In this document: positions 14,033 to 63,165 of the stretch, piece by piece
How positions within the stretch are numbered: position 1 is the first letter of the stretch
Layout: every line of letters starts with the position of its first letter
Origin: Clostridia bacterium
GTDB taxonomy: Bacteria > Bacillota > Peptococcia > Peptococcales > BICA1-8
Direction of reading: 5' to 3'
DNA length: 64,000 bases
Assembly (NCBI GenBank): GCA_012720075.1
Contig: JAAXZE010000030.1
Location: forward strand, 24,734-88,733
Translations under genes and position numbers: made by a program
The notes under the pieces: generated by a model
What the model was told of the DNA's origin: nothing
Database searches by the model: none
Seen by the model: only the letters and a program-made list of their open reading frames with translations

Positions 14033-14061
14033 TTGACAGAATAAAATCGTAATATTAAGCT
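14033..14061 (+). promoter_or_regulatory. possible promoter upstream of the C-A-B composite and argS
   Basis: Perfect TTGACA, 17 nt, weak TAAGCT. If real, the argS 5' UTR is about 340 nt of repeat modules. Confidence 0.3.
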
Positions 14062-14094
14062 AAAGGATATTGGATGGCAATTATATAATGTAAT

Positions 14095-14127
14095 AAGGTT
14101 AAGGTTTCACTTCGCTAGGTTAAGGTA
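14095..14127 (+). repeat. Family C block (GGTTAAGG..TTCGCT-TCGCTAGGTTAAGG)
   Basis: AAGGTTAAGGTTTCACTTCGCTAGGTTAAGGTA. Confidence 0.8.
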
Positions 14128-14153
14128 ATTGTGATATTGGGTATACATTAGAC

Positions 14154-14350
14154 AATGTATCCGATGAAAGTAGGTCTTTCGGGATGCATCAGCTTATATG
14201 CAAAATGCATGATGCATCCGATGAACGCCAATTAAAATTGATGCATCCGAAAAATATTACTTAAAAGATGATGCATCCTTTAAGCTAAACCTAGATGCAG
14301 ATGGGTCAGAGATAGTTTAACATTCATGAGATACATCCCAAAAAGTTTCC
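14154..14350 (+). repeat. Family A element, full copy (GATGCATC-rich imperfect palindrome, about 195 bp)
   Basis: Four exact GATGCATC boxes. Ends are inverted: ATGTATCCGATGAAAG at the 5' end, CATTCATGAGATACATCCC at the 3' end. About 88% identical by eye to the inverted copy at 17985-18190. Confidence 0.85.
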
Positions 14351-14358
14351 TTAAACCT

Positions 14359-14394
14359 AGTCACACTTACGCACTAACCCACTTACACACTTAA
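14359..14394 (+). repeat. Family B array (CACACTWA 8-mers) abutting the argS RBS
   Basis: AGTCACACTTACGCACTAACCCACTTACACACTTAA, then AATTGAGGTG and ATG. Confidence 0.8.
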
Positions 14395-14410
14395 TAATTG
14401 AGGTGTTGAA

Positions 14411-16087
14411 ATGAGTATTGTAGAAAAATTAAAAAATAATATCAAAGAGCGGATTATTAATGCCCTTGAATTAAACAGGGCGGAAGGCAAGCTGAATTTT
14501 AGTGAAATTCCCTCTTTTGTTTTGGAGGTTCCCCGGGAAAAGGCCCATGGCGATTTCGCCGCCAATGTTGCCATGCTGATGGCCAAAGAGGCCAAAATGA
14601 ATCCTCGGGCTATAGCCCAATTAATAGTCGACAAACTTTCATTAGAAGGAACCTGGGTGGAAAAGGTTGAAATTGCCGGACCGGGATTTATAAATTTTTA
14701 TTTGGATTTCCGGTGGCTTTATGATGTTTTGCCTTTGGTAGAAGAACAGGACGAGGATTACGGTTCCAGTTATGTAGGGCAAGGAACCAAAGTACAGGTT
14801 GAGTTTGTCAGTGCCAATCCTACCGGTCTCTTACATATGGGAAATGCCCGTGGGGCAGCTTTAGGTGATACTTTGGCCAATCTTTTAAAGAAAGCGGGCT
14901 AATCGGTGACCAAAGAATTATATTTTAATGATGCCGGCAATCAGATAGAAAACTTCGGCAAATCTTTGGAAGCCAGGTTTTTGCAGCAACTAGGATATGA
15001 TGTTCCTTTTCCTGAAGAGGGCTATCATGGGGAAGACATTATCGATACCGTAAAGAGAATTATTGAAAGGGACGGTCGGGTCTATTTAGAAATGGACCCC
15101 GAAGAACGGAGAAAGAAGCTGACTGAAATAGCCCTTGAGGAAAAAATTGCGGCAATAAAAGCCGCTTTGGAAAACTTCGGCGTCATTTATGATGTTTGGT
15201 TCAGTGAGAGTACTTTGCATCAATCAGGGGCCATTGATAAGGTTATTCAAGAATTAAAGGAAAAAGATTTAGTATATGAACATGAGGGGGCCTTGTGGTT
15301 CCGCTCCAGTCGTTTTGGGGCCGATGATAAAGATGAGGTAGTCGTCCGTTCCAACGGAGTGCCTACTTATTTTGCAGCCGATATTGCCTACCATAAAAAC
15401 AAATTTGAGCGGGGATTTGATTGGGTTATCAATATTTGGGGCGCTGACCACCATGGTCATGTTGCCAGGATGAAAGGTGCTTTGGAGGCAGTTGGCTATG
15501 ACCCCGACAAATTAACGGTTATACTGATGCAATTGGTTCGTCTTTTCCGGGGCGGGGATATTGTGAGAATGTCCAAGCGGACCGGCCAGTATGTCACTTT
15601 AACCGAATTGGTTGAAGAAGTAGGCAAAGATGCCGCCAGGTACTTCTTTGTAATGCGCAATCCCGACAGCCACCTGGACTTTGACCTGGATTTGGCTAAA
15701 CAGGAATCTTCGGAAAACCCTGTCTACTATGTTCAATATGCCCATGCCAGGATTTGCAGCATCTTAAAGTCCATAGGCCAAGAACAGCCGATGGCAGCCA
15801 ATACCAGGCTCGATCTTTTAAAAGAACCGGCCGAATTGGAATTGCTTAGAAAAATCGCCGATTTGCCTGATGAAATAGCTCAAGCGGCCAAAGCTTTGGA
15901 ACCCCATCGTATTGCCAGGTATGCCCACGATTTGGCCGGAGCTTTTCATACCTTTTATAACAGTTGTCGTGTACTGACTGATGATCAAGAGTTAAGGGAT
16001 GCCCGGCTGGTATTGGTTAATGCAACCAGGATTACCCTCCGCAACGTCTTAACCCTCTTAGGAGTCAGTGCTCCCGAAAGAATGTAA
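14411..16087 (+). pseudogene. argS: arginine--tRNA ligase interrupted by one in-frame TAA (14900-14902)
   Basis: ORFs 14411..14902 and 14906..16087 share one frame. Junction reads [23 protein letters not shown], where ArgS normally has Gly-Tyr-x-Val. HMGNARG (HIGH) and MSKR (KMSK) motifs are present. Confidence 0.85.
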
Positions 16088-16226: not shown

Positions 16227-17885
<1,659 letters not shown>

Positions 17886-17932: not shown

Positions 17933-17980
17933 GTCTGTGAGTGTGTTAGTGTGTAAGTGTGTTAGTGCGTAAGTGCGACT
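17933..17980 (-). repeat. Family B array, inverted
   Basis: The + strand reads GTGTGTTAGTGTGTAAGTGTGTTAGTGCGTAAGTGCGACT, the complement of CACACTWA words. Confidence 0.8.
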
Positions 17981-17984
17981 AGAA

Positions 17985-18190
17985 CTAAGGTAACTTATTA
18001 GGTTGCATCTCATGCATGCGAAATAATCCCTGACGCATCTGCATCTGGGGTTAGCTTAAAGAATGCATCATCTTTTTAGTAATATTTTTCGGATGCATCA
18101 ATTTAAATTGTCATTCATCGGATGCATCATGCATTTTGAGTATAAGCTGATGCATCCCAAAAGACCTATTTTCATCGGATACATCATTTA
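17985..18190 (-). repeat. Family A element, full copy, inverted orientation
   Basis: The reverse complement aligns end to end with 14154-14350, including the internal segment GATGCATCCGAAAAATATTACT.AAAAGATGATGCAT that the other copies lack. Confidence 0.85.
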
Positions 18191-18357: not shown

Positions 18358-19434
18358 ATGCAGGCCCGGTTAATCAATGAAAATGAACGAGAATATTTTA
18401 ACAATTTTGTGGCCTCCGTTCCGAAAGGACACGTTCTTCAGTCCTATGAATGGGGAGAGATTAAAGCAAAAACAGGATGGAAACCTTTAAGGATGATTGT
18501 TGAGGAGAACGGTCAACCAATTGCTGCCATTTCCATATTAAAGAGAACTATTCCGGGGCTGAAAAAAGCGATTTTTTATGCTCCTCGAGGTCCTGTTGTT
18601 GATATCAATAACCAAAAAGTTTTTGATTTTTTAATGGCTGAAGTAAAAAAACTGGCGCAAAAGCATAAGGCCATTTTTCTAAAAATTGACCCTGATATAC
18701 CGTCAGAAAATAAAGCTTTCAAAGAACTTCTTTTCTCCCGTGGGTTTCGTTCCGCTGAGAAAGGAGAAGGTTTTGAAGGAATTCAGCCCAAATATGTTTT
18801 TCGTTTGGACATTACCCCTGATGAAGAAACCCTATTAGCCAATATGCACAGTAAAACCCGCTATAATATCCGTTTGGCTGAGCGGAAGGGCGTAACAATA
18901 AAAACCGATTGCACTAAAGAAGATTTAAAGGTCTTTTATGACATTTTGTTGGAAACATGTGAAAGGGATAAATTCCTGGTCCGGTCTTACAGCTATTTTG
19001 AAGACATGTGGGATTTCCTGGTAGAACGGGGTTACGGCAAGTTGTTTTTGGCTCAATATGAAGGAAAATATATAGCAGGTACCCTTGCCTTAAATTTCGG
19101 CGAAAAGGCTTGGTACCTTTATGGAGCTTCCAGCAACAATTATCGCAATGTTATGCCCAATTATCTCATTCAATGGACCATGATAAAATGGGCCAAAGAA
19201 ATAGGCTGTACCCTGTATGATTTCCGTGGAGTTCCCGGCGACCTCTCAGAAGATAATCCTTTGTACGGTCTATATAAATTTAAAAAAGGTTTTAACGGTG
19301 TTTATACCGAATTTGTCGGTGAATATGATTTGATTTACTCTCCTTTTTATTATTGGTTATGGCATACCGCCGAACCTATCTATCAAAAAGGGATTCGAAA
19401 ATTTATAGCGTTGAAAAAGAAAATTAAAAAATGA
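18358..19434 (+). CDS. FemAB-family peptidoglycan interpeptide-bridge aminoacyltransferase
   Basis: About 360 aa. FemAB-like sequence (HSKTRYNIRLAERKG, WYLYGASS..YRNVMPNYL). Confidence 0.75.
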   Translation: MQARLINENEREYFNNFVASVPKGHVLQSYEWGEIKAKTGWKPLRMIVEENGQPIAAISILKRTIPGLKKAIFYAPRGPVVDINNQKVFDFLMAEVKKLAQKHKAIFLKIDPDIPSENKAFKELLFSRGFRSAEKGEGFEGIQPKYVFRLDITPDEETLLANMHSKTRYNIRLAERKGVTIKTDCTKEDLKVFYDILLETCERDKFLVRSYSYFEDMWDFLVERGYGKLFLAQYEGKYIAGTLALNFGEKAWYLYGASSNNYRNVMPNYLIQWTMIKWAKEIGCTLYDFRGVPGDLSEDNPLYGLYKFKKGFNGVYTEFVGEYDLIYSPFYYWLWHTAEPIYQKGIRKFIALKKKIKK

Positions 19435-19442
19435 AACTGTAT

Positions 19443-19539
19443 AAGATGCATCAGATGAATGTAAGTCTTTAGGGATGCATCTGCTTTTTAGAAAAAAGCA
19501 TGATGCATCCGATGCATGACCGGTAATTTTGATGCATCG
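19443..19539 (+). repeat. Family A element, 5' half only
   Basis: AAGATGCATCAGATGAATGTAAGTCTTTAGGGATGCATCTGC...CATGATGCATCCGATGCATG...TTGATGCATCG, then switches to family E. Confidence 0.75.
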
Positions 19540-19552
19540 ATTATCTACTATT

Positions 19553-19664: not shown

Positions 19665-19803
19665 AATAATTCTCAACTCTCCACTCACACACTTAAATGT
19701 TCCAGTCACCAGTCACCAGTCACTAATTGGTAGATTACTGGGCACAGGGCACTGGTCACTTGGCACGGGACAAAAATTTTAACCCAAAAGTTCAGACAAG
19801 CCA
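19665..19803 (+). repeat. Composite G(inverted)-B-H-I upstream of alr
   Basis: AATTCTCAACTCTCCACTC; CACACACTTAA; CCAGTCACCAGTCACCAGTCACTAAT; TACTGGGCACAGGGCACTGGTCACTTGGCACGGGACAAAAATTTTAACCCAAAAG. Confidence 0.8.
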
Positions 19804-23284: not shown

Positions 23285-23346
23285 GGCTACAGTTCCCGTT
23301 CTACAGTGCTAAAGAAAAAAGGTTAAGGTTTCGCTTCGCTAGGTTG
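23285..23346 (+). repeat. Family D (CTACAGTG-type 8-mers) plus family C block
   Basis: GGCTACAGTTCCCGTTCTACAGTGCTAAAG, then AAGGTTAAGGTTTCGCTTCGCTAGGTTG. Confidence 0.8.
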
Positions 23347-23538
23347 TATTCGATAAAAGCAAGTTTTTACAGATGCATCTGCTTTTAAGCAAAATGCATG
23401 ATGAATCCGATGCATGGCAATTTTAATTGATGCATCCCATAAATGTTATCCAAAGATGATGCATCCTTTAAGTTTTACTCGGATGCAGATGCGTCAGGGA
23501 TGGTTCAACATGCATTAGATACAACCCAATAAGTCACT
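23347..23538 (+). repeat. Family A element, full copy
   Basis: CAGATGCATCTGCTTTTAAGCAAAATGCATGATGAATCCGATGCATGGCAATTTTAATTGATGCATCCC...GGATGCAGATGCGTCAGGGATG...CATGCATTAGATACAACCCAATAAGTCAC. Confidence 0.85.
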
Positions 23539-25561: not shown

Positions 25562-25568
25562 TTTATTA

Positions 25569-25600
25569 ATTGAGAATTGAGAATGGAGAGTTGAGAATTT
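25569..25600 (+). repeat. Family G array (GAGAATT/GAGAATG/GAGAGTT 7-mers)
   Basis: ATTGAGAATTGAGAATGGAGAGTTGAGAATTT. Confidence 0.85.
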
Positions 25601-27260: not shown

Positions 27261-28139
27261 ATGAAGAGTTTAAGAGTTAAAAGCAAGGGGATAATCCTGT
27301 TAATATTTTTATTTTTCCTGTTGGTGCCATTGGTAGTGGAGGCCAAGGAATATAAACCTCTGGTTTTGGACTTGCCGGCAGAGAGTCAAAATGAAGCCGG
27401 AACAGTAAAATATGTCATTAAAAAGGGAGATACCCTTTATAGCATCGGCCGCAAATTTAACTGTACCGCCGATCTGATTGCCGCTATTAATGGTATCAGC
27501 AATCCCCATCTAATCAAACCAAATCAGGAAATATTGATCCCCAAAATTATGGAGGTAACCCATGAGGTTACGGCCGGTGAAACAATCTGGAGTATTGCTG
27601 CTCTTTACGGTGTCTTACCCCAGCAAATAATATTTGCCAATGATATATGGTTTCCCGACCGGTTAGTACAGGGAACTTTTCTGGAAATCCCTATAACTGC
27701 TCAGGTTACTATTGCCGGCAATACCGTCAATAAAATTTCATCCCGTGAGAAAGGAAGCTTTATGTATACACCTACGGTGGGAGTTTTATCATCCGTTTTC
27801 GGATCTCGGGGGAAAGAATTTCATACAGGTATCGACTTGGCCAATAAGCAAGGTACGGCTATTAATGCTGCTCAGGCCGGAAAGGTAACCTTTGTCGGCT
27901 GGAAAGGAAATTACGGTTGGACCGTTGTCATAGACCATCTCAATGGCTATAAGACCCTTTATGGCCATAACAGTAAAATACTTGTCCAAAAAGGACAGTG
28001 GGTGGAGAAAGGTCAAAAGATAGCTTTAATGGGCAATACGGGACGTTCCACCGGTCCCCACCTGCATTTTGAAATTTACGAGAACGGTAAAGTGGTAGAT
28101 CCGTTAAAATATATTTATCTGAGGGACAATGACTATTAA
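27261..28139 (+). CDS. secreted LysM-domain M23 peptidase
   Basis: Signal peptide, two LysM repeats (YVIKKGDTLYSIG, HEVTAGETIWSIA) and M23 motifs (HTGIDLA, GPHLHFE). Confidence 0.8.
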   Translation: MKSLRVKSKGIILLIFLFFLLVPLVVEAKEYKPLVLDLPAESQNEAGTVKYVIKKGDTLYSIGRKFNCTADLIAAINGISNPHLIKPNQEILIPKIMEVTHEVTAGETIWSIAALYGVLPQQIIFANDIWFPDRLVQGTFLEIPITAQVTIAGNTVNKISSREKGSFMYTPTVGVLSSVFGSRGKEFHTGIDLANKQGTAINAAQAGKVTFVGWKGNYGWTVVIDHLNGYKTLYGHNSKILVQKGQWVEKGQKIALMGNTGRSTGPHLHFEIYENGKVVDPLKYIYLRDNDY

Positions 28140-28140
28140 A

Positions 28141-28252
28141 ATGAATGCCATTTTTTATTGATGCATCCGATGAAATCGGTCTCTTGGGATGCATCTACTA
28201 TTTAGTGATACTGAATGATGCATCCGATGAATGATAATTTTTTGGATGCATC
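28141..28252 (+). repeat. Family A element, rearranged partial copy
   Basis: Four GATGCATC boxes. Starts with the central box (ATGAATGCCATTTTTTATTGATGCATCC) followed by the 5' box. Confidence 0.7.
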
Positions 28253-28271
28253 TTACTAAAGAAGTTATCAT

Positions 28272-28353: not shown

Positions 28354-29607
28354 ATGTTCCATTTTGTATATGCAGATGAACATGGCAACGCCTTTGACCA
28401 TCCCGGGCTATTTGCTTTAGGAAGATTAGGCAATTCCTTTGTAGAGCCGACGGAAGACGAATTTATTCCGATGCCTCAAGGCACTTCTCTGACATTGATC
28501 CCGAATCGTACCGCAGTAGTCATGGATAAAAAGGGACAATTTAAAAAATACCGGGGAAAAGGGTGGGCAGTGGGTGCACTATTGCCCCAAGGTTATACCA
28601 GGACTTTACTGCCGGCTTTTGTCAATGATGCAAAAGCCGGCCCTTTGCCTTTGTTTGGTTATACCGCAGTAGGCTATAAAGACGGACGTTTTTATGTAGC
28701 CGCTCGACCTACGGACATCGATGATAAATGGAACCCTAAACATTTTAATACCGCCGTTCTAAAAGAAAAAGTAAACCGATTAGTTGAAAAATTTCCGCAA
28801 AACCGCATTATCCGGCAATTAAGCTTTTGTGCCCTGGAATACGGCTGTTTTACTGCCCAAAATATTTTTTATGAGAGATGGGAAGGGGGTATCCCTGCTT
28901 CTCCTGCTTGTAATGCCCGATGTTTAGGCTGTATTTCCCTCCAGCCAGCGGAGTGTTGCCCTTCACCTCAAGCCAGGATTAATTTTGTGCCCGATGTCAA
29001 AGAAATTGTGGAGTTAGGTGTCCATCACCTTAATACTGCCCAGGAAGCCATCATCAGTTTTGGCCAGGGCTGCGAAGGCGAACCGTCCTTACAGGCTGAT
29101 ATAATTGTCCAATCTATCATTAAAATCCGGGAACAGACCGGTAACGGTACCATAAACATGAATACCAATGCCGGTTATACAAAAGGGATTGAGAAGATTT
29201 GCCGGGCAGGGATAAATTCTTTGCGGGTTAGTTTAAACAGTGCCCGAAAGGGAACTTATCATGCTTACTACAAACCCCAGAATTATACTTTTGAGGATGT
29301 CAAGGCCTCATTAAAGGAAGCGGACGGGCAAGGGGTTTATACATATCTTAATCTTTTGTTTTTCCCCGGCGTCAATGACTGTGAAGATGAAGTTGAAGCT
29401 CTCCTGGATTTGGTAAATACCACCGGTGTTAAAGCTATCCAAATCAGAAATCTTAATATTGACCCCGATTGGTTTTTAGCCAATATACCCCTTCCCCAGG
29501 GAGAGCCGCTAGGTGTTCCCGCCTTTTTGGAGGTTTTGAAACAAGAATTGCCCCATGTGGAAATTGGGAATTACACAAAACCGGTGGGGACATACAGAGA
29601 AGATTAA
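28354..29607 (+). CDS. radical SAM protein, unknown function
   Basis: CNARCLGC is a CxxxCxxC cluster motif. Also a GQGCEGEP glycine-rich motif. 417 aa. No partner genes nearby. Confidence 0.65.
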   Translation: MFHFVYADEHGNAFDHPGLFALGRLGNSFVEPTEDEFIPMPQGTSLTLIPNRTAVVMDKKGQFKKYRGKGWAVGALLPQGYTRTLLPAFVNDAKAGPLPLFGYTAVGYKDGRFYVAARPTDIDDKWNPKHFNTAVLKEKVNRLVEKFPQNRIIRQLSFCALEYGCFTAQNIFYERWEGGIPASPACNARCLGCISLQPAECCPSPQARINFVPDVKEIVELGVHHLNTAQEAIISFGQGCEGEPSLQADIIVQSIIKIREQTGNGTINMNTNAGYTKGIEKICRAGINSLRVSLNSARKGTYHAYYKPQNYTFEDVKASLKEADGQGVYTYLNLLFFPGVNDCEDEVEALLDLVNTTGVKAIQIRNLNIDPDWFLANIPLPQGEPLGVPAFLEVLKQELPHVEIGNYTKPVGTYRED

Positions 29608-29960
29608 GGGATGGCATTATGGCTTTGGGGTTAAAGAATCGGTCTGCTTGACGGCTAAAAGACCAATTTTTCTGGACCGCATGACGTCTTCTAAGCAAAA
29701 TTATAGGTCAGCATGACGTCTGCCGGGAAAACTTTTCCGTCAGCTTTTGTAATTCATTAAAATTAGATTTTTCGGTCGCTTCTTCCCCGGATAGCACACT
29801 GTTAACTGTATAAATTAAGGACCGACCCAGGGAATTAGCCTATAAGACGTCACACCGTCCTGCATTTTAACCCCAGAGCCGTCACACCGACCAAAAATTT
29901 AACCCGTAAGCCGTCATACCGACCTAAAAAATAACCCGAAAGGCATAATATCGGCCTGCA
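29608..29960. repeat. Family J inverted array (left arm about 29608-29745, right arm about 29815-29960; right arm has a 32-33 bp period)
   Basis: Left arm: TTGACGGCT, CGCATGACGTCTTCT, GGTCAGCATGACGTCTGCC. Right arm: GACGTCACACCGTCC..., then GTCACACCGACCAAAAATTTAACCCGTAAGCC, GTCATACCGACCTAAAAAATAACCCGAAAGGC and ATAATATCGGCCTGCAAAATAACCC, with cores at 29848, 29881, 29913 and 29945. Confidence 0.8.
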
Positions 29961-29992
29961 AAATAACCCATATAGGCCATAAGCACTCCCTC

Positions 29993-38267: not shown

Positions 38268-38606
38268 TTGTGACACCTAGACATCAATTTTCAGTTGGAA
38301 GGCTTGGAAAAATAGATAATAGTAAGATTAAGGTTTCGCTTCGCTAGGTTGAGGGTAATAAATGTAGTTCCACAGTGCTAAAGTTCTACCGTTCTACAGA
38401 AAGAATTAATTAAGTTTAAAGATTAGAGATTTCGCTCACTTTCGTTCGCTAGTTTCCGCTTCGCTAGATTCAAGCTTTAGATGTCACAGTGTCACAATGA
38501 CACTATGGAACGATGTCACGAAATCCTGGTCACTGGACACGGAACCAAACAATTTAACCTGAGGGTCACTTAAACACTCACACACTTTCAAACTAAAACA
38601 CTTAAC
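38268..38606 (+). repeat. Composite E-F-C-D-C'-E-I-B filling the prfA upstream region
   Basis: TTGTGACACCTAGACATC; AATTTTCAGTTGGAAGGCTTGGAAAAA; GATTAAGGTTTCGCTTCGCTAGGTTGAGGG; TGTAGTTCCACAGTGCTAAAGTTCTACCGTTCTACAG; GAGATTTCGCTCACTTTCGTTCGCTAGTTTCCGCTTCGCTAGATTCAAG; GATGTCACAGTGTCACAATGACAC; CTGGTCACTGGACACGGAACCAAACAATTTAACCTGAG; CACTTAAACACTCACACACTTTCAAACTAAAACACTTAAC. Confidence 0.85.
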
Positions 38607-39709: not shown

Positions 39710-39791
39710 TTAATGGAGAGTTGAGAATTGAGAATGGAGAATTATTAAAAATAATTGAAAGTGGTGAATGGAGAACTGAGAGAGAGTTGAT
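39710..39791 (+). repeat. Family G array (long) between prfA and prmC
   Basis: TTAATGGAGAGTTGAGAATTGAGAATGGAGAATTATT...GTGGTGAATGGAGAACTGAGAGAGAGTTGAT. Confidence 0.85.
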
Positions 39792-42724: not shown

Positions 42725-42956
42725 AAGTGACATTGTGTCATCGTGCCATCGTGACATCGATTTTCAGTTGGAAAAGTGGGATGTTGGAAGAGTTGGAAAA
42801 GAAGATTAAAGGTTACGTCAACTTCGTTGACTAGTTTTTGCTTCGCTAGGTTGAGGTTGACTAATTGTATTAGGGCAGCGAACAAAAAGCCAGTCACAGG
42901 GCACAAGACCAAAAACATAGCCCAAAAGTACAAACAAGCTCGGTCACCAGTCACAG
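42725..42956 (+). repeat. Composite E-F-C-I-H upstream of mntP
   Basis: AAGTGACATTGTGTCATCGTGCCATCGTGACATCG; ATTTTCAGTTGGAAAAGTGGGATGTTGGAAGAGTTGGAAAAG; AAAGGTTACGTCAACTTCGTTGACTAGTTTTTGCTTCGCTAGGTTGAGG; CAGTCACAGGGCACAAGACCAAAAACATAGCCCAAAAG; GGTCACCAGTCACAG. Confidence 0.85.
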
Positions 42957-45412: not shown

Positions 45413-45769
45413 GCGACAGACAACTGCTTCTTGGTTAATTTGTCCCGTCAGACAATTGCTCTTAGGTTTTCATTTTGCGACAGACAATGGCGCTAGGTTA
45501 ACATATTCCGTTAGACAATTTCTACTAGGTTTTAATTTATTCCGTCAGACCATTGCTTAAGGGTTGATTTTTCCGTCTGACAATCTGGTATTTGGTTTGA
45601 AATATGATAACTGTAGAAATATCTGACGGAATAAACAGTCCAAATATTATATCAGACGCAAAAATATGGCAATATAGAAAATCTGACGGAATAGTAAGAC
45701 GTAAGGGTATGTCTGACCTAATAGCAAAGTTTAAAAGCAAAGTCAGACGTAAAAGCTTAACCCAATGAG
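45413..45769. repeat. Family K inverted array: about 5 left-arm units (CGTCAGACAAttgc...) and about 5 right-arm units (cTGACGgaa/caaaa...), period about 30-33 bp
   Basis: Left unit starts near 45413, 45446, 45478, 45509 and 45543. Turn at 45574-45622. Right unit starts near 45623, 45653, 45683, 45713 and 45742. The last unit, GTCAGACGTAAAAGCTTAACCCAATGAG, runs into the glyA RBS. Confidence 0.85.
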
Positions 45770-47029: not shown

Positions 47030-47032
47030 CTA

Positions 47033-47067
47033 TAGTGATATTGTGTCACCGCAACACCGTGACATAG
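47033..47067 (+). repeat. Family E block
   Basis: TAGTGATATTGTGTCACCGCAACACCGTGACATAG, i.e. TGTCAC N9 GTGACA. Confidence 0.7.
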
Positions 47068-47076
47068 AAAGGTAGC

Positions 47077-47250
47077 ATTAACGGATGCATCCGATGAAAG
47101 TAAGCCTTTGAGGATGCATCTGCTTACAAGGAAGATGCATGATGCATCCGATGAATGCCAATTTAAATTGATGCATCCTTTAAGCTATACTCAGATGCAG
47201 ATGCGTCAGGGATGATTTTCATGCATGAGATACAACCCAATAAGTCACCT
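47077..47250 (+). repeat. Family A element, full copy with short internal deletion
   Basis: CGGATGCATCCGATGAAAGTAAGCCTTTGAGGATGCATCTGC...ATGCATGATGCATCCGATGAATGCCAATTTAAATTGATGCATCC...CAGATGCAGATGCGTCAGGGATG...CATGCATGAGATACAACCCAATAAGTCACC. Confidence 0.85.
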
Positions 47251-47254
47251 AAAT

Positions 47255-47276
47255 CCAGTCACACTTAAACACTTTT
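47255..47276 (+). repeat. Family B, short, upstream of upp
   Basis: CCAGTCACACTTAAACACTTTT. Confidence 0.6.
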
Positions 47277-47303
47277 TTCAGTTACCAAGAAGGAGGTAAA
47301 ATT

Positions 47304-48638: not shown

Positions 48639-48825
48639 TTGTAGTCCTACAGTGCTACAGTTCTACCGTTCTACAGTAAAAAAGGTTGAGGTTTCGCTAC
48701 GCTAGATTAAGGTTGAGAATTCACACTAACACACTAACACACTTAATTATTACTGGGTACTGGTCACTGGACACTGGGCACAAGACCAAAAAAGTTAACA
48801 CATAAGTCCGGCCACCGGTCACTAA
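48639..48825 (+). repeat. Composite D-C-B-I-H upstream of the MazG-like gene
   Basis: TTGTAGTCCTACAGTGCTACAGTTCTACCGTTCTACAG; AAGGTTGAGGTTTCGCTACGCTAGATTAAGGTTGAG; TCACACTAACACACTAACACACTTAA; TACTGGGTACTGGTCACTGGACACTGGGCACAAGACCAAAAAAGTTAACACATAAG; CCGGTCACTAA. Confidence 0.85.
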
Positions 48826-60570: not shown

Positions 60571-60610
60571 GATAATGGAGAATGGAGAATTGAGAATGGA
60601 GAGTTAAAAG
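60571..60610 (+). repeat. Family G array
   Basis: GATAATGGAGAATGGAGAATTGAGAATGGAGAGTTAAAAG. Confidence 0.85.
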
Positions 60611-62910: not shown

Positions 62911-62980
62911 TTTAGGTTAAGGTTTCGCTGCGCTAGGTTAAGGTTAATATTAACGTGATTTCGTGTTGCCTGTGACATCG
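62911..62980 (+). repeat. Family C block plus family E fragment downstream of murA
   Basis: TTTAGGTTAAGGTTTCGCTGCGCTAGGTTAAGGTTAA, then CGTGATTTCGTGTTGCCTGTGACATCG. Confidence 0.75.
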
Positions 62981-62990
62981 AAAGGAATTA

Positions 62991-63165
62991 TTAAATGATG
63001 CACCCGATGAAAGTTAATCTTTGGAGATGCATCTGCTCTTAAGTAAAATGCATGATGTATCCATTGCATGCCAATTTAAATTGATGCATCCCTTTAAGTA
63101 ATTCCAAGGAGCAGATGCGTCAGGAAATATTTAACATCCATGAGATACATCCCAATAAGTTTACT
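62991..63165 (+). repeat. Family A element, degenerate full copy between the murA stop and its terminator
   Basis: Same box order as the other copies, with point changes (GATGCACC, GATGTATCC). Followed by the intrinsic terminator at 63194-63219. Confidence 0.8.

Follow-up and report, generated by a model that had tools for sequence, protein, structure and literature searches.

A modular, palindrome-headed intergenic repeat family in an uncultured Bacillota lineage

What kind of element gathers the palindromic octamer GATGCATC (the box) into dense intergenic clusters? The question arises from the 64-kb stretch of bacterial DNA analysed here (the window), in which exact boxes number 25 vs 0.61 expected from dinucleotide-preserving shuffles (shuffle maximum 2). 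This ~40-fold over-representation simply reflects, for the most part, the presence of seven copies of a multi-box element, designated Family A. The original prediction of roughly two dozen exact boxes, all within the elements, is accurate in number and nearly so in placement: 24 of the 25 sit in seven intergenic clusters, but one (37142) stands alone within a coding region, about as expected by chance. Each cluster harbors four to seven boxes (exact or with one mismatch) at a start-to-start spacing of 28-31 bp. Searched with an nhmmer profile derived from 12 full copies, the window yields precisely the seven sites first proposed and no others. The element is a small interspersed extragenic repeat in kind; it is neither a new RNA gene nor a classical MITE.

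The window genes are typical of a spore-forming Firmicute and nearly all share one strand; among them are argS, pyrG, femX, alr, fba, glpX, and SleB/YpeB, together with the his, mrp, and atp operons. GlyA is 100% identical to a protein of a 'Clostridia bacterium' MAG and 88% identical to that of Clostridiaceae bacterium BRH_c20a and Peptococcaceae bacterium BICA1-8. The host belongs to an uncultured Bacillota lineage whose relatives include BRH_c20a and Peptococcaceae MAGs. A cyanobacterial origin, first suspected from the tandem heptamers described below, was rejected in view of the Firmicute-type genes (SleB/YpeB, FemX), the strand bias, and GlyA identities of 88-100% to Clostridia and Peptococcaceae MAGs. 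Two otherwise intact essential genes, argS and pyrG, are each split by one in-frame TAA (14900-14902 and 16737-16739), and the equivalent codons in a related locus (L025) are TAT (Tyr) and GAA (Glu). These stops could be pseudogene mutations, MAG consensus errors, or population variants. An alternative genetic code was rejected: only two in-frame TAA codons are found, in place of the relatives' TAT and GAA, and there is no recoding signal.

Architecture of the element

Family A was originally described as a simple 190-bp palindrome. Alignment of the seven window copies shows instead a periodic modular array (28-29 bp), in which ordered modules of ~29 bp (28-30 bp), each with a box at its head, follow one another as A1-B-A2-(optional C)-D-E, the E module being an A-type unit inverted. 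This order is common to the seven window copies and to 12 copies from five or more genomes. From the alignment of the window copies, the modules read as follows.

Module A1: box, then linker CGATGAAAGTAGGTCTTTNGG
Module B: box, then TGCTT...AAATGCAT
Module A2: box, then CGATGAATGCCAATTTAAATT
Module C (optional; in three of the five full window copies): box, then CGAAAAATATTACTNAAAAGAT
Module D: box, then CTTTAAGC...GATGCA, followed by the variant box GATGCGTC
Module E (inverted A type): CATKCATGA, then GATACAWC

The element measures 100-190 bp. Of the window copies, five are full and the remaining two break off after the fourth box.

14154..14350, forward strand: full copy (focal) with C module, between a LysO-family exporter gene and argS; box cluster 14183-14337
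17985..18190, reverse strand: full copy with C module, inverted, between pyrG and femX, downstream of the pyrG terminator hairpin; box cluster 18002-18185
19443..19541, forward strand: truncated copy (A1-B-A2-box4), beginning directly after the femX stop codon; box cluster 19445-19538
23344..23538, forward strand: full copy with C module, between fba and fsa; box cluster 23372-23495
28141..28254, forward strand: truncated copy (A1-B-A2-box4), adjoining the stop of an M23 peptidase gene (28137-28139); box cluster 28160-28252
47077..47250, forward strand: full copy without C module, between glyA and upp; box cluster 47084-47207
62991..63165, forward strand: full copy without C module, downstream of the 61644-62894 gene, with the most degenerate boxes (two exact); box cluster 62997-63151

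The focal copy illustrates the arrangement.

14154-14161: degenerate box1 AATGTATC; linker A1 at 14162-14182
14183-14190: box2; linker B at 14191-14210
14211-14218: box3; linker A2 at 14219-14239
14240-14247: box4; optional linker C at 14248-14269
14270-14277: box5; linker D at 14278-14299
14300-14307: D box GATGGGTC; linker E (inverted A type) at 14308-14329
14330-14337: E box GATACATC; tail to 14350

The inverted orientation first assigned to the copy at 17985-18190 is confirmed by both the copy alignment and nhmmer. In contrast, the copy at 28141-28252, initially read as rearranged, is truncated right after its fourth box, as is the 19443 copy. The copy boundaries were also drawn too tightly, the conserved element reaching ~20 nt further at each end. 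At its 5′ end, the 23344 copy is fused to a hairpin repeat (GGTTAAGG...GCTAGGTT), and the join deletes the first bases of box1. Both truncated copies start at, or within a few bases of, stop codons, namely those of femX (19434-19452) and the M23 peptidase gene (28137-28167). In the latter, an A-type linker (28140-28159) follows the stop codon immediately, and the element may therefore have supplanted the gene's own 3′ end.

The box is self-complementary, which accounts for the occurrence of modules in both orientations. The presence or absence of C is an indel of exactly one box and one linker (30 nt), bounded by boxes. Inverted-repeat ends, as first proposed, are real but weak: the 5′ GATGYATCCGATGAAAG matches the reverse complement of the 3′ CATKCATGAGATACAWC at ~11 of 15 positions, read by eye off the window-copy alignment, and this repeat amounts to the inverted A-type module at the 3′ end. 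Terminal pairing is perfect in the 14154 copy only, and the terminal boxes differ in cross-species copies.

The element harbors no ORF. When preceded by T, the 29-nt unit reads ATG...TGA (nine codons); these mini-ORFs lack a ribosome-binding site (RBS) and were dismissed as a trivial result of box spacing. Type III antitoxin-like and CRISPR-like arrays were likewise set aside, as the linkers fall into a few conserved types, the arrays are dispersed, and no toxin or cas gene adjoins them.

Distribution, turnover, and mobility

The distribution of Family A was searched with the exact pattern box-CGATGAA-(12-15 nt)-box. Among 185,579 species representatives, matches are limited to Peptococcaceae UBA3933, Clostridiaceae BRH_c20a, and Bacillota Betzabe_MAG005, apart from one chance match inside a Lachnospiraceae coding region; a further 19 metagenome contigs carry the pattern. 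Viral contigs have no match to it, and plasmid and phage collections gave no BLAST match to the element, on which grounds a plasmid, phage, or viral source was rejected. Full-text literature searches with the 8-mer, the 8-mer plus repeat terms, and the MAG names returned nothing relevant.

In the element-bearing sources, all 45 of 45 arrays are intergenic, lying between ORFs in both orientations. Of 66 non-redundant pairs of neighbouring boxes, drawn from the window and all loci retrieved, 49 are spaced by 28 or 29 bp and five by 57-59 bp. Copies from other species keep the core order B-A2-D-E, contain an additional 3′ module, and have the B unit multiplied. The B module of Family A resembles a GTCAGCAT-headed unit that dominates the arrays of UBA3933-type species. 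Locus L017 harbors a 10-box array that changes orientation part-way and includes three tandem 57-bp double units.

Insertion polymorphism, with empty sites in relatives, was among the checks named at the outset, and it is borne out at orthologous spacers in loci of relatives syntenic with the window. Between pyrG and femX, the window holds an inverted copy and L004 a forward copy, while L025 and L035 have a terminator hairpin followed by an RBS and no copy. At fba-fsa, the full copy seen in the window has a variant array as its counterpart in L025 and L035 and no counterpart in L004. Between glyA and upp, a full copy in the window corresponds to a variant array with a C module in L043 (92% GlyA identity), to a 30-nt spacer in L040 and L044 (91% GlyA identity), and to other repeats without boxes in L017 and L018. 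The region upstream of argS and the femX-alr spacer are occupied in the window only. Conversely, the region upstream of atp harbors the 10-box array in L017 and none in the window.

Since occupancy differs among orthologous spacers of relatives, the family turns over quickly. Judged from these comparisons, it behaves as a dispersed element whose gain and loss keep pace with species divergence. The glyA-upp distance is 274 nt in the window (47030-47303) vs 30 nt in L040 (3912-3941) and L044 (2204-2233), where the junction contains no terminator. Thus, it looks as if repeat insertion has split an apparent glyA-upp operon junction in the window. The window copies are only 78-89% identical to one another in pairwise comparison, which gives little sign of very recent transposition. 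Recombination among repeat-rich spacers, rather than transposition, could in principle produce fast spacer turnover. Even in the closest relatives (90-92% GlyA identity), the spacers are unalignable, and no exact excision footprint is definable.

The original prediction of a non-coding element with no transposase in the window holds: Pfam or NCBIfam scans of 30 window ORFs, which represent housekeeping genes, yield none. Clustering of the ORFs from all loci reveals no transposase or other recurrent mobility gene beside the arrays, only syntenic housekeeping genes; the recurrent neighbours are lyase-family paralogues and identical contigs from different metagenomes. Searches with the E. coli RayT (tblastn and phmmer) against the window and 45 related loci (~474 kb) return nothing better than E = 1.5, a weak negative limited to that DNA. 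No insertion sequence (IS) with matching ends is found in the window, beside arrays in the fetched loci, or in plasmid, phage, and viral collections. Copy borders share no common direct repeat, the flanks themselves being mostly other repeats, and when the filled glyA-upp spacer of the window is set against its empty 30-nt counterpart in L040 and L044, no duplication is seen, although such repeat-laden flanks weaken the comparison. The designation MITE/ERIC-like is therefore apt in the broad sense of a dispersed, non-coding, intergenic repeat but not in the strict sense of a MITE, as neither a target-site duplication nor a cognate transposase is found.

Box conservation, folding, and competing explanations

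The conserved part of the element is the box. Across species, box columns are 0.89 identical vs 0.62 for linker columns, and within the window type the corresponding values are 0.94 and 0.79. As box identity exceeds linker identity, the box is constrained beyond the shared ancestry of the copies, the very excess whose absence was to have told against the original reading. This conservation would fit a host function equally well. One such function has the palindromic 8-mers serving as sites for a dimeric DNA-binding protein (nucleoid-associated, a global regulator, or partition-type), with the host keeping the arrays for chromosome organisation or gene control. That the perfect 8-bp palindrome is the best-conserved part is what such a protein would lead one to expect, as are the regular 28-29 bp spacing, the location of several arrays 50-150 nt upstream of start codons, and the palindromic heads of the sister families described below (GTCWGAC and GTCAGCATGAC). 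However, occupancy of orthologous spacers is not conserved even at housekeeping genes, which is unexpected for regulatory sites, and with a period of 28.5 bp, neighbouring sites fall on different sides of the helix. Dispersed copies moreover share their linker types and the order of these, which a pure site array does not need, and there is no candidate protein. A binding-site array is thus considered unlikely. A methyltransferase or repair bias that enriches GATGCATC, in the manner of the cyanobacterial HIP1, would make the box an iterated palindrome linked to restriction-modification. The box is indeed a perfect palindrome, over-represented as noted, that contains ATGCAT and two opposed GCATC, the cores of the NsiI and SfaNI sites, respectively. 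Nevertheless, a genome-wide bias would also enrich genes, whereas all boxes but one occupy seven fixed-linker arrays rather than being spread over coding DNA; copies of one modular element account for the excess. This explanation is very improbable.

A cis-acting structured RNA has also been considered, in which box-box hairpins are selected for mRNA stabilisation or processing or for titration of an RNA-binding protein, as in REP stabilisers and Csr-type sponges. When single-stranded, the element will certainly form hairpins, and the predicted minimum free energy (MFE) of single-copy RNA lies at z -3.0 to -4.0 relative to full shuffles. In co-directional spacers, from which duplicate contigs were removed by hand, 16 copies are sense and seven antisense. 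The glyA-upp copy is probably co-transcribed, as a relative has an operon junction of 30 nt at the position it occupies, and its spacer has no terminator-like site. In addition, the D box is consistently GATGCGTC, which allows G-U wobble pairing with box4 on the sense strand only. Against this, the native energy is barely better once boxes are kept and only linkers are shuffled (z +0.2 to -4.2, median near -1.5). The MFE structures also vary among copies: in the 47077 copy, a nested hairpin is built from the first four boxes, while in the 14154 copy it is the terminal modules that pair. The single long hairpin or cruciform first envisaged is not upheld by these differing structures, nor by the box-preserving shuffles, which indicate little complementarity beyond the boxes.

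RNAalifold on 12 copies predicts three stems, each between boxes (box1-E, box2-box3, and box4-D box), that consist almost wholly of invariant boxes, such that these stems are uninformative either way. Covariation, the check proposed for a selected structure, is essentially absent from the 12 copies, with a compensatory change in one of 25 pairs and an unfavourable covariation term of +0.92. In the 23347 copy, what looked like compensation in the terminal boxes was traced to its fusion with the neighbouring GGTTAAGG repeat and was discarded. The orientation bias is mild and not significant (binomial estimate, two-sided p ~0.09), with ~30% of copies antisense. A known ncRNA was ruled out with Rfam, which has no match at gathering thresholds in the whole window and only noise in a permissive search of 14050-14420 (E 4-9, 10-17 bits). 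Promoter-like and terminator-like motifs are not enriched. Nothing indicates selection on a particular RNA structure, and a conserved RNA gene is not suggested; a selected cis-acting RNA is accordingly regarded as distinctly unlikely. Each of the three alternatives is thus weakened by one of these observations: non-conserved site occupancy, absence of covariation, and restriction of the boxes to arrays.

The explanation that probably applies is a lineage-specific, non-coding, non-autonomous mosaic extragenic repeat of an uncultured Bacillota clade, similar in kind to BIME and BOX. A putative trans-acting enzyme would copy the whole module string to new intergenic sites. The shared order of distinct modules argues against arrays arising de novo at each site by local duplication. 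Since the boxes are the conserved part, they are probably the part recognised by this enzyme or by a host protein, perhaps as duplex palindromes or as 8-bp hairpin stems in single-stranded DNA. Arrays may grow, shrink, and be truncated through slippage or unequal recombination between identical boxes, as suggested by the box-bounded C indel and by truncations that end at a box. A copy inside a transcription unit, such as that between glyA and upp, would add a strongly folded segment to the mRNA. Decay or read-through of the mRNA may thereby be altered, as with REP, BOX, and ERIC, although this would be a side effect and not the purpose of the element.

Relation to known repeats and to the surrounding intergenic DNA

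With modules of 28-30 bp, each headed by the same perfect 8-bp palindrome, Family A differs from BOX, the modules of which measure 45-59 nt. The two nevertheless share a modular, non-coding, composite design with fixed end modules and variable internal tandem modules. In Family A, these features are evident from the order A1-B-A2-(C)-D-E, the multiplication of B, and the double units of L017. Similar to BOX in S. pneumoniae and S. suis, Family A has partly complementary ends and strong predicted folding, is intergenic and clustered with other repeats, and resides in a Firmicute host. BOX consists of boxA, a variable tandem array of boxB, and boxC (67-637 bp), and it clusters with other repeats (PMC3049150). 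Its length varies between strains via gain and loss of modules, which is a further likeness (PMC3049150). For BOX, terminal inverted repeats that resemble ISSpn2 ends and target-site duplications have been reported (PMC3049150), whereas no target-site duplication or matching IS was found for Family A. The resemblance appears to be one of architecture only, and Family A is accordingly kept apart from the BOX elements.

REP units are imperfect palindromes of 20-40 nt with a stem of 5-13 bp and an unpaired GTAG or CGTC end tag; they form inverted dimers and clusters, and some superfamilies (CGTC type) have no dedicated transposase (PMC3733652). The text of that survey of tagged REPs does not contain the word Firmicutes (PMC3733652). 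Like REP, BIME, and REPIN sequences, Family A comprises dense extragenic palindromic units in clusters and inverted pairs able to form larger hairpins, mostly between co-directional genes and in lineage-specific families (PMC3733652, PMC3337134). It is extragenic and multicopy, as seen from its seven arrays in 64 kb, and its clusters and inverted pairs are exemplified by the inverted 3′ A units and the mixed orientation in L017. The unit itself is different, being a perfect palindrome of just 8 bp with a linker of 20-21 nt and no constant GTAG or CGTC flank; GTAG/GCAG is present only before the D box. A hairpin thus requires two neighbouring boxes 20-21 nt apart, in contrast to the usual short REP loop, and the box-linker-box hairpin, with an 8-bp stem and a 20-nt loop, lies at the edge of the published REP range (PMC3733652). 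A further difference is the lack of a RAYT in the ~474 kb searched.

MITEs and ERIC display insertion polymorphism and can be co-transcribed with neighbouring genes (PMC3049150). Family A resembles them, including Correia of Neisseria and Nezha of cyanobacteria, in being shorter than 200 bp, non-coding, and intergenic, with inverted ends and insertion polymorphism. However, its terminal inverted repeat is short, imperfect, and itself an internal module, no target-site duplication or IS with matching ends was found for it, and its internal tandem periodicity is foreign to both MITEs and ERIC.

Architectural parallels also extend to unrelated hosts. In Drosophila foldback (FB) elements, tandem subrepeats of 10-31 bp, variable in number, make up long inverted arms. 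Two sister families in the window (29607-29970 and 45414-45743) are similarly built: units run forward in the left arm and are inverted in the right one. In Nostoc-type genomes, intergenic DNA is filled by tandem heptamers (STRR) and small dispersed repeats (SDR), and here too it is filled with tandem and dispersed repeats. The hosts are unrelated and there is no sequence similarity; hence, these are analogies of architecture only. A broader and rather doubtful proposal is that Family A and its sister arrays constitute an undescribed superfamily of prokaryotic foldback-type elements in a class-level uncultured Firmicutes lineage. The elements would be propagated or bound by a putative protein that recognises short palindromic heads at a period of ~30 bp, a system distinct from RAYT/REP and DDE/MITE. 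Such a dedicated recogniser, if it exists, would amount to a novel activity in mobilisation or DNA organisation.

Proteobacteria (REP/BIME, ERIC, and Correia) and streptococci (BOX and RUP) have furnished well-studied examples of small interspersed extragenic repeats. To our knowledge, such repeats have hardly been described in anaerobic spore-forming Firmicutes. Here, several periodic repeat families pack the intergenic DNA of an uncultured subsurface and bioreactor lineage and turn over between species at ~90% protein identity. The arrays break short-read assemblies and affect MAG quality, could be used as strain-typing markers in the manner of BOX and REP PCR, and may change operon expression where tight junctions such as glyA-upp are split.

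Family A is only one of the repeats that load the intergenic DNA of this clade to an unusual degree. The first sister family, located upstream of glyA (45414-45743), consists of ~32-bp units headed by the near-palindrome GTCWGAC. Six forward units are followed by inverted ones (ATCTGACGG...), forming a long foldback, and an orthologous array occupies the same spacer in L040 (2253-2672; 91% GlyA identity). In the other (29607-29970), whose palindromic head is GTCAGCATGAC, the units again measure ~32 bp; left-arm units carry the head GGTCAGCATGACG(G/T)CT, and right-arm units are inverted (AGCCGTCACACCGACC). This second sister family recurs in L040 (4572-4935) and in the fba-fsa spacer of L025 and L035. 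The resemblance of its unit to the B module of Family A suggests a common origin.

A dispersed hairpin repeat, GGTTAAGGTTTCGCTTCGCTAGGTTAAGG, is present at five positions.

14097-14125: GGTTAAGGTTTCGCTTCGCTAGGTTAAGG hairpin repeat
23321-23345: GGTTAAGGTTTCGCTTCGCTAGGTTAAGG hairpin repeat
38326-38354: GGTTAAGGTTTCGCTTCGCTAGGTTAAGG hairpin repeat
48684-48712: GGTTAAGGTTTCGCTTCGCTAGGTTAAGG hairpin repeat
62915-62943: GGTTAAGGTTTCGCTTCGCTAGGTTAAGG hairpin repeat

It precedes four of the five full copies of Family A at a distance of 0-45 nt and is fused to the 23347 copy, where the junction is lost. Intergenic DNA in the window also holds a hairpin repeat of the GGTTAAGG...CCTTAACC type, and in other species CCTTAACC-type repeats come after the element instead.

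Tandem 7- and 8-mers (CACACTTA, AATTGAG, CCAGTCA, ACTGGGC, GTGACATC, and AGTTCTAC) occupy the DNA immediately upstream of ribosome-binding sites, as in the following examples.

14362-14393: tandem 7-/8-mers
17936-17975: tandem 7-/8-mers
19702-19766: tandem 7-/8-mers
25568-25599: tandem 7-/8-mers
39712-39743: tandem 7-/8-mers
42727-42759: tandem 7-/8-mers
48643-48781: tandem 7-/8-mers
60574-60602: tandem 7-/8-mers

The heptamers recall the STRR of heterocystous cyanobacteria, although the host here is a Firmicute. Octamers of the CACACTTA type come after the 3′ end of most Family A copies.
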